NCBI GenBank assembly: GCA_029821195.1
Contig: JALGTU010000001.1
Coordinates: 8,707 to 72,706 of the forward strand
From: Candidatus Zipacnadia bacterium
Lineage (GTDB): Bacteria > Armatimonadota > Zipacnadia > Zipacnadales > Zipacnadaceae
Length of the DNA: 64,000 bases
Reading direction: 5' to 3'
Shown here: positions 46,189 to 50,801 of the stretch, piece by piece
How positions within the stretch are numbered: position 1 is the stretch's first letter
Layout: each line of letters starts with the position of its first letter
The notes under the pieces: generated by a model
What the model saw: the letters and a program-made list of their open reading frames with translations, nothing else
Told to the model about the DNA's origin: nothing
The model's database searches: none
Translations under genes and position numbers: made by a program

Positions 46189-47526
46189 TCATAGTACAGG
46201 CAGGTACTTCTCGAGCTCCCAACTGGTAACCTGCACGCGATACTCATCCCACTCGATCCTCTTATTCTCAATGAGCTTGCCGTGCATTTCCTCGCCCAGA
46301 GCCCGCTTGAGCAAATCACTGCTTTCGGCCAGGCCAACCGCGCTGTGCAGGTCGGGAGGCAGCGTGCCGATGCCGAGAGCCTCCCGCTCCTCCTCAGACA
46401 TTTCATACACGTTGCGCGTCACCGGCGAGGGGCATTCGTAGTCGTTTTCAATGCCATCCAAACCGGCCGCGAGCATTACCGCAAAGGCCAGGTAGGGGTT
46501 GCAGGCCGGATCGGGCGCACGGTACTCTATGCGCATTGCTCGCTCGCGCCCGGGCTTATAGGTGGGCACTCGGATCAGATCCGAGCGATTGGTCAGGGCC
46601 CAGGACAAGTAGACCGGTGCCTCGTAGCCGGGCACCAGGCGCTTGTAGGAGTTGACCCACTGGTTGGTAACCAGCGTTATTTCCTGGGCATGCTTGAGCA
46701 GCCCGGCTATGTACTTGCGGGCAATGGCCGACAGGTATAGCGAGTCGTCAGGGTCGAAGAAGGCGTTCCTGTCTTCAACGAACAATGACTGGTGCACATG
46801 CATGCCACTGCCGTTTTCGGAGAACAGGGGCTTGGGCATAAAGGTGGCGTAGACGCCGTGGCGCAAAGCGACCTCCTTGACGACCAGCCGATAGCTCATC
46901 GCGGCATCGGCCATCGTCAGCGCATCGGTGTAGCGCAGGTCCACCTCGTGCTGGGAGGGTGCTACCTCGTGATGACTGTATTCGACCCCGATGCCCATTT
47001 GCTCCAGCATAATCACGGTTTCCCGCCGCAGATCCATGGCCTCGTCACGGGGCGTCATATCAAAATACCCCGCGTGGTCGAGAACCTGGGGATTGGGGTC
47101 ATTACCCTTGAAGTAAAAATACTCCAACTCCGGGCCGACGTAAAAGGTATAGCCCAGCTTCGCCGCCCGCGCCAGATTGCGCTTGAGCACATAGCGGGGG
47201 TCACACTCGTAGGGGGTGCCATCGGGCCGCAGAATGTCACAGAACATCCGCGCCACCGCACCGCCCTCGGTGGGCCGCCACGGCAGAACGGTAAAGGTGG
47301 CCGGGTCCGGCATCGCCACCATATCACTCTCGTCAATACGGGCGAAGCCCTGGATAGACGAGCCGTCAAAGCCCTGGCCTTCAGCCAGCGATAGCTCCAA
47401 TTCGTCCACAGTGATCGCAAAGCTCTTCAAATATCCGAGAATGTCGGTGAACCAGAGCTTTACGAACTTGACGTTATTCGCTTTGACCTGTTCGAGCACA
47501 TACTGCTTATCCTTGGGATCGGACAT
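46189..47526 (-). CDS. glnA: Glutamine synthetase type I.
   Basis: MSDPKDKQYVLEQVKANNVKFVKLWFTDILG... and GS catalytic motifs. AGGAGG lies 6 nt before ATG 47526. The ORF-track start at 47613 is an extension. Confidence 0.9.
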   Translation of the reverse strand: MSDPKDKQYVLEQVKANNVKFVKLWFTDILGYLKSFAITVDELELSLAEGQGFDGSSIQGFARIDESDMVAMPDPATFTVLPWRPTEGGAVARMFCDILRPDGTPYECDPRYVLKRNLARAAKLGYTFYVGPELEYFYFKGNDPNPQVLDHAGYFDMTPRDEAMDLRRETVIMLEQMGIGVEYSHHEVAPSQHEVDLRYTDALTMADAAMSYRLVVKEVALRHGVYATFMPKPLFSENGSGMHVHQSLFVEDRNAFFDPDDSLYLSAIARKYIAGLLKHAQEITLVTNQWVNSYKRLVPGYEAPVYLSWALTNRSDLIRVPTYKPGRERAMRIEYRAPDPACNPYLAFAVMLAAGLDGIENDYECPSPVTRNVYEMSEEEREALGIGTLPPDLHSAVGLAESSDLLKRALGEEMHGKLIENKRIEWDEYRVQVTSWELEKYLPVL

Positions 47527-47652
47527 CACGGTCCTCCTATGTGCCAACCTGGCATTGCGAGTTTGGCGCAGTCTATCATGCCACAGCGATACCCCTGAGT
47601 CCCGGCGAAGCATTCGGTAGGTCTAGCTTGGCACCCTAGAGGTATGTATCTA

Positions 47653-47681
47653 ATAATAGACGAATAAGATAGTTAGTGCAA
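47653..47681 (-). promoter_or_regulatory. Sigma70-type promoter TTGCAC-N17-TATTAT for glnA, inside a local AT-rich island.
   Basis: rc of +47676..47681 is TTGCAC. rc of +47653..47658 is TATTAT. Confidence 0.5.
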
Positions 47682-47856
47682 GTCCCTGCTCAGCAGGCCG
47701 AGCGAGACCATCAGATGACAGATAGCCGCCAGGTGACAGCGCTTGCGCCCGAGAGACAGGCGGAAGCAAGGGCGGCGATTGACGTCGCCGGTGGCCAGGC
47801 CCACATAACCAGCCTGCGAGGCGGGGTGACTGTCCAGATCGAAGGCTGAGTGCATT

Positions 47857-49236
47857 GTGGCCAAAGCTATGGTTGTGCAAGCTCTGAAACTATCCGTTGC
47901 TGGATTACGAGGTGTCGTGGGCCATACGCTCACGCCCGAGCTGCTGGTGGACTTCGGCCAGGCGTTCGCCACCTATGTCGGCAGGGGAACGGTCCTGGTC
48001 AGTCGGGACACCCGTAATTCCGGCAAGATGGTCGGCCCGTGCGTCGTGTCGGGCCTGATGGGCGGCGGCTGTCAAGTAGTAGACCTGGGGATCTGCCCCA
48101 CCGCAGCACTCCAGTTAGCCGTCAAACAGGGGCCCGCCGTCGGCGGCATCGCTATCACTGCTGGTCATAACGACGCCAGTTGGAATGCGCTGAAATTCGT
48201 GCGGGACGACGGGATATTCCTCAACCCGCGCCAGAACGAAGAACTGCTCGATATCTACCATCAGGGCGAGTACGTCAAGGCGCAGTGGGACGAACTCCAT
48301 CCCATCGCGGCCGATCCCGACGCAGCCGAGCGCCACCTGGCGGCGATAGTTGCGCAGGTAGACGTCGAGAAGGTTCGTGAGGCGCATCTCAAGGTCGCAG
48401 TGGACTGCATCAACGGGGCCTGCTCGCAGGACTCGCCGCGCTTGCTGGAGAGACTGGGCTGTGAAGTAGTGGCGATAAACATTGAGCCGCGCCAGCCCTT
48501 CCCGCATCCTCCCGAACCCAGTCAAGCCAATCTGAGTCAACTGCGCGCCATAGTCCAGGCCGTGGACGCCGATATCGGCTTCGCCCATGACGCGGACGGT
48601 GACCGACTCGGCTTTGTCGCGTCGGGTGGCGAGATCTTCTCGGAGCAAATGACGATATGCCTGTGCGAGGAGATGATCCTACGCCGGGGTGACGCCGGGC
48701 CAGTGGTCACCAACCTGTCCACCACCCAGGCAGTAGACGACATCGCCGCGCGCTACGGGCGCGAGACTCATCGTACCGGCATTGGCCAGGCCTATATCAC
48801 CGAAAGCGCCCTTAACTATCAGGCGGCTATCGCCGGCGAGGGCAGCGGGGGGATTGTTTTTCCGCGTCTGAACTACGCTCACGACAGTATGGCGGCGATG
48901 GCGCACATCCTCGACCTGTTGGCCGGCCTGGACGAGCCGCTTGTGGACTTCATTGCCCACAACATCCCCCACTACGTCATGCGGCAGGGCCAGGAGCATT
49001 GCCCCACTGAGCGTGCTTACAGTGTGCTCGAGGCGATCCGCACCCAGCAGCTCCCGGCCTGGGCGGACAGCCGTGACCTGCAGGACGGTATCAAGATAAT
49101 TGGCGAGGGCCGGTGGGTACAGGTGCGGGTATCCCAGACCGAGCCGCTGATTCGAGTTATGGCCGAAGCGCGCGACGTAGCCACTGCACGGGAATTGGTG
49201 CGCGAATATCTCAGCCGCGCCCGGCAGTTGATGTAA
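47857..49236 (+). CDS. Alpha-D-phosphohexomutase-family paralogue (GlmM/PMM-like) with a degenerate active-site loop, TAGHND instead of TASHNP.
   Basis: Full four-domain architecture with metal loop DADGDR and sugar loop GEGSGG, but the catalytic Ser codon is GGT (48163..48165). GTG start with GAAGG upstream. Confidence 0.8.
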   Translation: MAKAMVVQALKLSVAGLRGVVGHTLTPELLVDFGQAFATYVGRGTVLVSRDTRNSGKMVGPCVVSGLMGGGCQVVDLGICPTAALQLAVKQGPAVGGIAITAGHNDASWNALKFVRDDGIFLNPRQNEELLDIYHQGEYVKAQWDELHPIAADPDAAERHLAAIVAQVDVEKVREAHLKVAVDCINGACSQDSPRLLERLGCEVVAINIEPRQPFPHPPEPSQANLSQLRAIVQAVDADIGFAHDADGDRLGFVASGGEIFSEQMTICLCEEMILRRGDAGPVVTNLSTTQAVDDIAARYGRETHRTGIGQAYITESALNYQAAIAGEGSGGIVFPRLNYAHDSMAAMAHILDLLAGLDEPLVDFIAHNIPHYVMRQGQEHCPTERAYSVLEAIRTQQLPAWADSRDLQDGIKIIGEGRWVQVRVSQTEPLIRVMAEARDVATARELVREYLSRARQLM

Positions 49237-49394
49237 GCATCACAAGCTGATAGGAGCGACGTTCTTGTCGCAACTACGTCGGTGGCACGGGCTTCCAGCC
49301 CATGATGCACAGGCAGGATGCCTGTGCCACTGGACTGTGGTCCGGGCAAGGGCGCTCCTCAGCCAATCAAGCGACCAAAAACACGGGTGACTAA

Positions 49395-50801
49395 ATGTCC
49401 GGAGTAAGAACGCTCAAAACCGGCGTATCCGGAGTACGCGGCGTAGTTGGCGACTCGCTGACGCCGCACCTGCTGGTCTCATTCGCCCAGGCCTTTGGCA
49501 CCTATCTGGGCGGCGGGCTGGTCGCCATCGGCCGCGACACCCGTCCCTCCGGACAGATGGTGCGCAGCGCGCTGGTCGGCGGGCTACTGGCTACCGGGTG
49601 CAACGTCATTGACCTGGACATCGTGCCGGTGCCGACGCTGCAGATTGCCTGTGCCCGCAATCCTGAGACCATCGGCGGCATTGCCATCACCGCCAGCCAC
49701 AACCCCCAGCAGTGGAATGCCCTGAAGTTCATTCGCTCCGACGGCATCTTTCTCTACCCGTACCAGGTCCAGGAGCTGCTCAATGTCTACCACCAGGGCG
49801 AGTTCGCTTTGGTGGGTAACGAGCAGATCGGCGAGGTGGTCAGCGATGACCAAGCCATTGAGCGACATGTCGCCGAGCTGCTGGCCCGGACCGACCGCAA
49901 GGCGATTGCCGACGGCAACTTCAAGGTTGTGGTGGACTGCTGCAATGGCGCCGGGGCAGTGGTCAGCGAGCGGCTGCTCAGAGAACTGGGCTGCGAGGTC
50001 ATTGCCATCAACGACACGCCCGACGGCATCTTCCCGCATCTGCCCGAACCGGTACCGGAAAACATGGGACAACTGGAGCAGGCGGTTCGCGAGCACGGCG
50101 CCGACCTGGGGATGGTGCAGGACGCCGACGCCGATCGTCTCGCGCTGGTTAATGAACAGGGAATGGCAGTCGGGGAAGAGTACACCCTGGCACTGGCCGC
50201 GGATACCGTCGCCGCTGCAGGCCCCTTGCCGTTGGTCACCAACCTGGTGACCAGTCGAATGATCGAGGAAGTCGCCGAGCGCTACAACTGCCCGATGCAC
50301 CGCACGGCGGTGGGCGAAGTGTACGTGGTCGAAGCCATGCAGCGCGCGGCTCGTGATTACCGAGCTGCCGGGCATACCGACCAGGACGACCGCGTATTCG
50401 GCGGCGAGGGCAACGGCGGCGTCATTGACCCACGCATCCACTACTGCCGCGACAGCCTGCGCGCGATGTGTCTGATTCTCGAGGGCCTGGCCCATCGGGG
50501 CGGGACGCTCAGTTCCTGGACAGAGGAGGCCTTCCGTCCCTCGGCTATTGTCAAGGAACGCATTGACTGCCCGGCGGCGCGGGTGCAACCGGCCATCCTA
50601 GCGCTGCGCGAAGAGTATGCCGGCCAGGAGATTGAGGAAACCGACGGTATCCTGGTGCGCTGGCCGGATCGTTCCTGGGTGCAGGCCCGTCCCAGCAACA
50701 CCGAGCCGATTATGCGCGTGGTCGCCGAAGCCGACAGTCACCAGCAAGCTCAGGACCTGGCCGATCAGGCCATGGCGGTCATTCGTCAGGCAATCGGCTG
50801 A
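49395..50801 (+). CDS. Phosphoglucosamine / phosphomanno-mutase-family enzyme, canonical.
   Basis: Active-site TASHNP, DADADR metal loop, GEGNGG loop. Confidence 0.85.
   Translation: MSGVRTLKTGVSGVRGVVGDSLTPHLLVSFAQAFGTYLGGGLVAIGRDTRPSGQMVRSALVGGLLATGCNVIDLDIVPVPTLQIACARNPETIGGIAITASHNPQQWNALKFIRSDGIFLYPYQVQELLNVYHQGEFALVGNEQIGEVVSDDQAIERHVAELLARTDRKAIADGNFKVVVDCCNGAGAVVSERLLRELGCEVIAINDTPDGIFPHLPEPVPENMGQLEQAVREHGADLGMVQDADADRLALVNEQGMAVGEEYTLALAADTVAAAGPLPLVTNLVTSRMIEEVAERYNCPMHRTAVGEVYVVEAMQRAARDYRAAGHTDQDDRVFGGEGNGGVIDPRIHYCRDSLRAMCLILEGLAHRGGTLSSWTEEAFRPSAIVKERIDCPAARVQPAILALREEYAGQEIEETDGILVRWPDRSWVQARPSNTEPIMRVVAEADSHQQAQDLADQAMAVIRQAIG

Follow-up and report, generated by a model that had tools for sequence, protein, structure and literature searches.

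A serine-less phosphohexomutase paralogue, long conserved beside a canonical partner in Armatimonadota and Acidobacteriota

Phosphohexomutases work by a ping-pong reaction in which the enzyme is phosphorylated on serine and a sugar 1,6-bisphosphate is the intermediate. Two neighbouring genes of this superfamily lie in a 64,000-nucleotide stretch of contig JALGTU010000001.1 from a Candidatus Zipacnadia bacterium (Armatimonadota), hereafter the window: the upstream open reading frame (ORF A) encodes glycine at the position of the catalytic serine, and the downstream one (ORF B) encodes a canonical enzyme. The closest described systems are the archaeal-type phosphohexomutases of the TIGR03990 family, represented by T. 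kodakarensis TK1108 PGM/PMM (9DU5), P. horikoshii PMM/PGM (1WQA) and S. tokodaii ST0242 (2F7L). ORF B is an ordinary member of this group. ORF A shares with it the four-domain fold, 29-33% identity and the metal, sugar and phosphate loops, but differs in having Gly for the phospho-serine, the E311Q substitution and GEGSGG for GEGNGG, and in being the upstream half of a fixed pair. Here we report that the Ser-to-Gly change is ancient and under purifying selection in the ORF A lineage. Tentatively, we favour the view that ORF A, as a non-catalytic paralogue, binds Mg2+ and a sugar (bis)phosphate and works with ORF B, probably as a hetero-oligomer, in hexosamine or N-acetylhexosamine salvage.

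Proteins that have lost catalysis or a nucleophile are known inside the superfamily and outside it. In the pseudophosphatase STYX the catalytic Cys is replaced by Gly, and Firmicute GlgC/GlgD form an analogous arrangement of a dead and an active paralogue. STYX-type pseudophosphatases have been described as keeping the phospho-ligand pocket with the nucleophile replaced (PMC8907265), and the trypanosomatid AdoMetDC and DHS prozymes are dead paralogues that form heteromers with an active paralogue and activate it (PMC3663545, PMC6221367). All of these have folds and pathways unrelated to those of ORF A, and a likeness in binding or activation would be one of analogy. Within the superfamily, vertebrate PGM5 (aciculin) has been reported to lack enzyme activity (PMC5570346). 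Like ORF A it keeps the phosphohexomutase fold for a presumably non-enzymatic role, and its structure 6Y8Y binds glucose-1-phosphate according to the PDB entry; unlike ORF A it is a vertebrate PGM1 paralogue (~560 aa, 17-18% identity) with cytoskeletal roles and no operon pairing with a catalytic paralogue. The best structural matches of ORF A are archaeal-type enzymes of ~455 aa, not PGM5. To our knowledge, PGM5 has not been reported to have lost its Ser by substitution with Gly.

Two further comparisons concern the chemistry more directly. The engineered Ser108 mutants of P. aeruginosa PMM/PGM (1K2Y S108A, 2FKM S108D, 3RSM S108C) resemble ORF A in that the nucleophile is removed from an otherwise intact site, but they are laboratory-made and belong to a different subfamily (25% identity), whereas ORF A represents a natural lineage kept by selection. 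Glucose-1,6-bisphosphate synthases (Slr1334/cd05800, of the PGM_like2 subfamily, and PGM2L1; PMC9426568) are specialists in the supply or handling of the bisphosphate activator and do not serve bulk mutase flux; in contrast to ORF A, which cannot form a phospho-serine enzyme, these proteins of another subfamily work by phosphoryl transfer. The same 2022 paper states that all known superfamily members catalyse phosphoryl transfer (PMC9426568).

ORF A and ORF B are 42% identical end to end (E = 6e-109), and all four Pfam PGM_PMM domains (PGM_PMM_I to IV) score above their gathering cut-offs in both proteins. The two genes occupy exactly the boundaries that a first-pass annotation of the window had assigned to a tandem of full-length phosphohexomutases (Table 1). 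Its description of the downstream copy as canonical was accurate: ORF B carries TASHNP, DADADR, GEGNGG and RPSNTEP, with Ser101 encoded by AGC at 49695..49697 within IAITASHNPQQWNALKF. The corresponding region of ORF A reads IAITAGHNDASWNALKF, with Gly at codon 103, and here too the annotation, which had noted TAGHND in a protein that keeps its metal and sugar loops, was borne out. Among the features of a catalytically competent enzyme (EC 5.4.2.x), the phospho-acceptor Ser is thus absent from ORF A, and DxDxDR, GE(G)xGG and R-x-S-x-T-E-P are present. Because that Ser is missing, ORF A is unable to run the classical ping-pong reaction, as the annotation had argued in line with established knowledge of the superfamily.

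The loss of the nucleophile is not accompanied by a predicted loss of structure. AlphaFold2 modelled ORF A with high confidence (predicted local distance difference test score, pLDDT, 92; predicted template-modelling score, pTM, 0.91), and the model has 91 PDB matches at E <= 1e-3. It superposes on the archaeal-type enzymes 9DU5, 1WQA and 2F7L at template-modelling (TM) scores of 0.88-0.90, with 0.90 for 9DU5, so ORF A is predicted to be a well-formed four-domain phosphohexomutase fold.

To see how widely the Gly occurs, we searched 5.8 billion proteins, and all 120 relatives among the matches listed (52-100% identity, mostly from Armatimonadota metagenome-assembled genomes) carry Gly in place of the Ser. 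At least 374 loci encoding relatives turned up when one genome per species was scanned; the best 80 of them belong to Armatimonadota (Armatimonadia, "Zipacnadia" and WS1) and, at 48-50% identity, to Acidobacteriota (Blastocatellia, Pyrinomonadaceae and Chloracidobacterium). Gly was found in 82/82 non-redundant locus proteins, Ser in 62/62 partner proteins and in 40/40 canonical family members. Neither Ala nor Ser was seen at the position of Gly103 among the 120 relatives listed and the 82 locus proteins. All four Gly codons are used in the loci (GGG 29, GGC 22, GGT 20, GGA 12), so the codon has turned over synonymously while the residue has been held. As to the origin of the Gly, the annotation had proposed a single AGT-to-GGT change. 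The single step stands, with a small correction to the Ser codon: in ORF B and in 54/67 partner genes it is AGC and not AGT, AGC being likewise one step from GGY.

These data leave almost no probability that the window genome carries a recently inactivated gene, a pseudogene in decay or a sequencing error, and we rejected this explanation. Its sole support is that AGY (Ser) and GGY (Gly) differ by one nucleotide. Against it, every relative examined in the two phyla carries Gly and the reading frame is intact. The collinear contig L008, which is 92% identical to the window at the nucleotide level, has the same codon context at the Gly site, and with the more than 200 other sequences that carry Gly it answers any doubt about the bases at 48163..48165. 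The ratio of nonsynonymous to synonymous substitution rates (dN/dS) between the window and L008 is 0.18 for ORF A and 0.12 for ORF B. Over 62 genomes (1891 pairwise comparisons), the A-type proteins have diverged at the same rate as the B-type proteins, with mean p-distances of 0.436 for both and a correlation of r = 0.96; mean column conservation is also identical, at 0.672. The suggestion that the upstream copy might be freshly inactivated is therefore refuted, and the two checks that had been proposed for it, an orthologue alignment and a dN/dS estimate, returned a Gly conserved in all relatives rather than strain-specific and a value that indicates purifying selection.

Conservation extends through the rest of the site. 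R18, the GxRG loop, D51, R53, H104, N110, K113, D245 and R250 are invariant in the Gly clade, as are E328, R424, S426, T428, E429 and R433; other residues that are near-invariant in canonical enzymes are invariant here too, D247 being a slight exception. In the metal loop, D245 and R250 are kept in 100% and D247 in 91% of the clade, and the third metal Asp (D249) is Glu in 57% of the whole clade, sampled members showing DADGER. The Gly clade is set apart by just four clade-specific alignment columns: S103G, G189C (NGAG to NGAC), E/K235A and A252G. Frequent but non-universal changes are E311Q (88%), GEGNGG to GEGSGG (76%), R342H (66%) and TEP to TES (54%).

The second constant feature of the lineage is its partner. 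Of the loci whose flanks are long enough to tell, 34/35 in Armatimonadota and 27/34 in Acidobacteriota have a canonical Ser paralogue downstream in the same orientation, and two further loci have it a few kb upstream. In neighbour-joining trees (100 bootstraps), no canonical enzyme is nested among the locus-derived Gly proteins in 100/100 replicates. Since both clades, Gly and partner, divide alike into Armatimonadota and Acidobacteriota, the trees indicate an old duplication that would have been inherited as a pair.

A further search of 1.84 billion 50%-identity cluster representatives yielded few additional Gly-type clusters, together with more divergent relatives in which the metal loop reads DADGER, DLDGRR, DTAGER, DSSGER, NVDGDR, NSDGSR or NSDASR and GEGSGG and R.S.TEP are kept. 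Combinations of phosphoryl-transfer and metal loops include SAGHT/DTAGER, TGSHN/NVDGDR and TGGHN/NSDGSR, and one phosphoryl-transfer loop reads SAGHG. These degenerate relatives join the locus-derived Gly proteins in 55-74% of the neighbour-joining replicates. Where the flank is long enough (P0125, P0128, P0199 and the gene upstream of P0129), each is directly followed by a phosphohexomutase gene, the two overlapping by up to 4 bp or lying at most 5 bp apart; the downstream protein is fully canonical in three cases and carries SGSHG/DGDADR/GEGDGG in the case of P0128. For P0196, a 1.9-kb contig cuts off the gene downstream, and the canonical singleton P0124 has no partner. Judging from these loops, catalytic residues appear to decay in the paired relatives while the sugar and phosphate loops persist.

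The constancy of the pairing bears on the possibility that ORF A functions alone, unassembled with ORF B, as a phosphosugar sensor or as a regulator of a target such as the kinase, GlmS or a transcription factor. Its ligand pocket appears intact, as such a sensor would require, and GlmM-CdaA complexes (PDB 7OLH, 7OJS, 9G69) show that the fold can serve as a protein-binding regulator. However, the canonical phosphohexomutase is the only neighbour conserved in both phyla and in the degenerate relatives, with no other constant partner gene, and the divergences of the two proteins are tightly correlated. We consider a stand-alone sensor quite improbable.

Other genes around the pair vary more and point, as far as gene content can tell, to hexosamine or N-acetylhexosamine salvage via an anomeric kinase. 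An unclassified GHMP kinase is encoded directly upstream in 27/32 Armatimonadota loci; it is GalK/MVK-like, falls below all NCBIfam cut-offs and matches HddA models weakly and in part, with better scores for GalK/GalNAc-kinase models. In Acidobacteriota, 19/45 loci have the order GHMP kinase, major facilitator superfamily (MFS) transporter, pair. Recurrent neighbours include a ROK kinase, a DeoR regulator, a two-SIS (AgaS-like) protein, a GH2 exo-beta-D-glucosaminidase and GH3. At L047 the kinase has human GalNAc kinase (2A2C) as its best PDB match and forms a fusion with a GlmU-like nucleotidyltransferase. This 867-aa protein (L047:2034-4637), in which the GHMP kinase part is GalNAc-kinase-like, is followed by the MFS gene and the phosphohexomutase pair; the fusion also occurs at L040, L046, L074, L079, L081 and L083, and looks like a one-polypeptide salvage enzyme with N-acetylhexosamine 1-kinase and uridylyltransferase activities. 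At L090:2-733, a fragment of an APH/NahK-type kinase with an HGDxxxxN motif lies directly upstream of another degenerate/canonical pair. The families represented suggest that different anomeric kinases have been recruited to the same phosphohexomutase module.

In the window itself only the end of a GHMP kinase gene is left. By tblastn this remnant is 51-56% identical to residues 323-361 of the L001 and L006 kinases; glnA (46189..47613, minus strand) now lies upstream of it and the remainder of the kinase gene is gone. Because L008 carries the identical truncation, it is a lineage deletion and no assembly artefact. A GHMP kinase as an obligatory third component was accordingly rejected, the gene being deleted in the window and L008 and absent from many Acidobacteriota loci. 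The constant core is the Gly/Ser pair, and the kinase is not part of it, since the kinase has been deleted here and yet both phosphohexomutase genes are under purifying selection.

How, then, might the pair function? The annotation had suggested a pseudo-enzyme, with a possible regulatory or heteromeric role, which agrees with the invariant Gly in two phyla, the purifying selection, the divergence equal to that of the paralogue and the near-obligatory adjacency. ORF A would be a long-conserved "dead nucleophile" member of the archaeal-type family. Its pocket appears complete, with places for Mg2+, the sugar ring and the two phosphates, but the protein would not become phosphorylated, the acceptor Ser being Gly. 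A paralogous hetero-oligomer is the most likely arrangement, in which ORF B would perform the phosphoryl shuttle between the 1- and 6-phosphates and ORF A would hold a sugar phosphate, of which the 1,6-bisphosphate that acts as intermediate or activator is the most plausible. In that position it could serve an allosteric or regulatory function, or it could retain the bisphosphate activator and so keep ORF B primed, and the module would operate in hexosamine or N-acetylhexosamine salvage with an anomeric GHMP sugar kinase. We infer ligand binding, inactivity, physical association with ORF B and the regulatory or reservoir role from the conservation and pairing described above. In favour of ligand holding, a Ser-substituted P. 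aeruginosa PMM/PGM has been crystallised with glucose 1,6-bisphosphate bound (PDB 2FKM, by entry title). Hetero-oligomers would be readily reached by duplication because 9DU5, the closest homologue of known structure, forms a stable D2 homotetramer (PMC11940775). ORF A also shows prozyme-like features, namely a catalytic residue lost in all orthologues under selection and a conserved adjacency to the active paralogue.

ORF A may yet have some altered part in catalysis, given that in the alignments every other active-site residue is conserved and the Gly is never Ala. ORF A might still be an enzyme whose chemistry does without the phospho-serine, an explanation that we place on the unlikely side. 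A metal-activated water could replace the Ser O-gamma and yield a hexose(amine)-1,6-bisphosphate phosphatase, which with an anomeric kinase would make an ATP-driven route from the 6-phosphate via the 1,6-bisphosphate to the 1-phosphate, comparable to HddA/GmhB. Alternatively, phosphoryl groups might pass directly within a ternary complex, or a residue such as His104 or Cys189 might serve as a substitute nucleophile. The invariance of the Gly over more than 200 sequences suggests that the empty space itself is required, and the Mg2+ ligands, H104, K113 and R250 are conserved. Yet metal ligands are missing from some proteins inside the clade or adjoining it (DLDGRR, DTAGER, DSSGER, NSDGSR) and the pairing is kept, which is hard to square with metal-dependent catalysis, and the change of E311 of canonical enzymes to Gln in most of the clade removes a carboxylate. 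The recurrence of anomeric kinases (GHMP kinases in two phyla and the APH-like fragment at L090), with their weak, partial matches to HddA models, would suit the phosphatase route, but the GHMP kinase scores higher for the free-sugar 1-kinases GalK and GalNAc-kinase, and it is dispensable in the window lineage, where ORF A is still under selection. As for a "migrated" nucleophile, Cys189 (NGAC) is 98% conserved in the Gly clade only and is the sole candidate among the four clade-specific columns; it was rejected, its co-variation with A252G looking like a packing swap that compensates for that change.

A broader form of this idea is that the Gly paralogue is not dead but represents a new functional type on the phosphohexomutase fold, either a hydrolase or direct phosphotransferase or an obligate cofactor-holding subunit; we judge this unlikely. 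The hydrolase would be metal-dependent, would act on hexose(amine)-1,6-bisphosphate and would need the cavity left by the Ser-to-Gly change, and with an anomeric kinase it would provide an ATP-driven, irreversible alternative to the reversible mutase. The cofactor-holding subunit would keep the bisphosphate activator bound beside the catalytic paralogue, giving a self-priming heteromeric mutase.

Several observations weigh against a non-catalytic partner of ORF B, the reading that we nonetheless prefer. That the two proteins form a complex is itself something we infer. When the 9DU5 tetramer contacts were mapped onto A and B (HMMER alignment, residues per clade), no clear complementary pattern emerged; the acid/base pair E28/K141 is kept in the Gly clade, and the acid is lost in the partner clade. 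No Gly-Ser fusion protein was found among 270 proteins listed. The near-total conservation of the metal and phosphoryl-transfer residues, together with the strict Gly, exceeds what a structural or scaffold role would need and would fit retained catalysis. Translational coupling is not evident in the window, where 158 bp separate the genes, and a kinase-dependent role is not obligatory, because this lineage has lost the adjacent GHMP kinase gene by deletion. Finally, strict monophyly of the Gly-type proteins, with the long-branch 50%-cluster representatives included, was recovered in only 4/100 replicates, and deep nodes are weakly supported.

The features of the locus are collected in Table 1. 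In relatives the spacer between the paired genes is often 2-30 bp, against 158 bp here, and no terminator-like site was found within it. The hairpin in the spacer was considered as a repeated element or terminator and rejected, as it is present only once in the window and lacks a T-tract.

Table 1 Features of the phosphohexomutase pair and its flanks (window coordinates)
Feature	Position	Strand	Remarks
Sigma-70-like promoter match TTGGCA-18-AATAAT	47628..47657	+	Weak consensus match only; upstream of pair
GHMP (GalK/MVK-like) kinase remnant	47733..47849	+	Last ~36 codons and stop
ORF A	47857..49236	+	Ser-less (Gly103) alpha-D-phosphohexomutase paralogue, 459 aa; 455 aa from alternative ATG 47869
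ORF A phosphoryl-transfer loop T-A-G-H-N-D	48157..48174	+	Gly103 = GGT at 48163..48165, catalytic Ser position
ORF A metal-binding loop DADGDR	48589..48606	+	D245, D247, D249, R250; intact
ORF A sugar-binding loop GEGSGG	48835..48852	+	Canonical form GEGNGG
ORF A distal phosphate-binding loop R-V-S-Q-T-E-P	49126..49146	+	R424, S426, T428, E429 invariant in clade
A-B spacer	49237..49394	+	158 bp; both genes on same strand
Hairpin in A-B spacer	49308..49326	+	Perfect 8-bp stem, CACAGGCA-GGA-TGCCTGTG
ORF B	49395..50801	+	Canonical partner phosphohexomutase, 468 aa

The start of ORF A is ambiguous between GTG 47857 and ATG 47869, the latter yielding an MxxLKLS N-terminus as in orthologues. A public gene call for an identical protein (P0001, 439 aa) apparently begins at Val21 (window 47857..47917), which would remove the conserved GxRG loop; comparison with orthologues supports the ATG, or the GTG, over Val21. 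ORF B residues ~313-332 (50331..50390) contain an insertion of ~13 residues relative to ORF A (RAARDYRAAGHTDQDD) just ahead of the sugar-binding loop. A similar segment is present in the partners of the closest relatives (L010, L006) and absent from more distant ones (e.g. L012, L020). Partners in one Armatimonadota sub-lineage that includes contigs labelled "Zipacnadia" (L005, L012-L015, L017, L019, L021) have TASHHP for TASHNP, with His for Asn directly after the catalytic Ser-His. In the near-identical contigs L004:10629-12018 and L005:10629-12020, the partner phosphohexomutase and the GHMP kinase are frameshifted into fragments in one of the two, probably through assembly or sequencing errors, and in this lineage a beta-helix (Pel9A-like) gene lies between the Gly and Ser paralogues.

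Full-text searches of a non-exhaustive library brought up no account of a bacterial phosphohexomutase lineage, or of a pseudo-mutase, that lacks the Ser. The public names of Gly-type proteins are "phosphoglucosamine mutase" and "phosphomannomutase". NCBIfam TIGR03990 (Arch_GlmM), the best family match of ORF A, is an equivalog model for phosphoglucosamine mutase with a curated cut-off of 439 bits, which ORF A passes at 442.2 bits and ORF B at 480.1 bits. ORF A should not be filed as a phosphoglucosamine mutase, because the phospho-serine, the defining catalytic feature, is missing, and the equivalog name is probably wrong for it despite the score. The passing of this cut-off by Ser-less proteins probably causes systematic misnaming, hundreds of them being called phosphoglucosamine mutase or phosphomannomutase, and where metabolic reconstructions credit Armatimonadota and Blastocatellia with two mutases, the count is probably in error.

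For the family, a Ser-less lineage that has been long kept, that evolves as slowly as its catalytic partner and that is gene-paired in at least two phyla (hundreds of genomes) points to an undescribed role for the fold, for which a regulatory subunit, a bisphosphate reservoir and new chemistry are candidates. If the Gly paralogue were a new functional type, in either of the forms considered above, this would overturn the statement that all superfamily members use a phospho-serine shuttle. For the organisms, poorly studied bacteria of soil and sediment, the genes around the pair suggest a hexosamine or N-acetylhexosamine salvage module that operates with an anomeric kinase.

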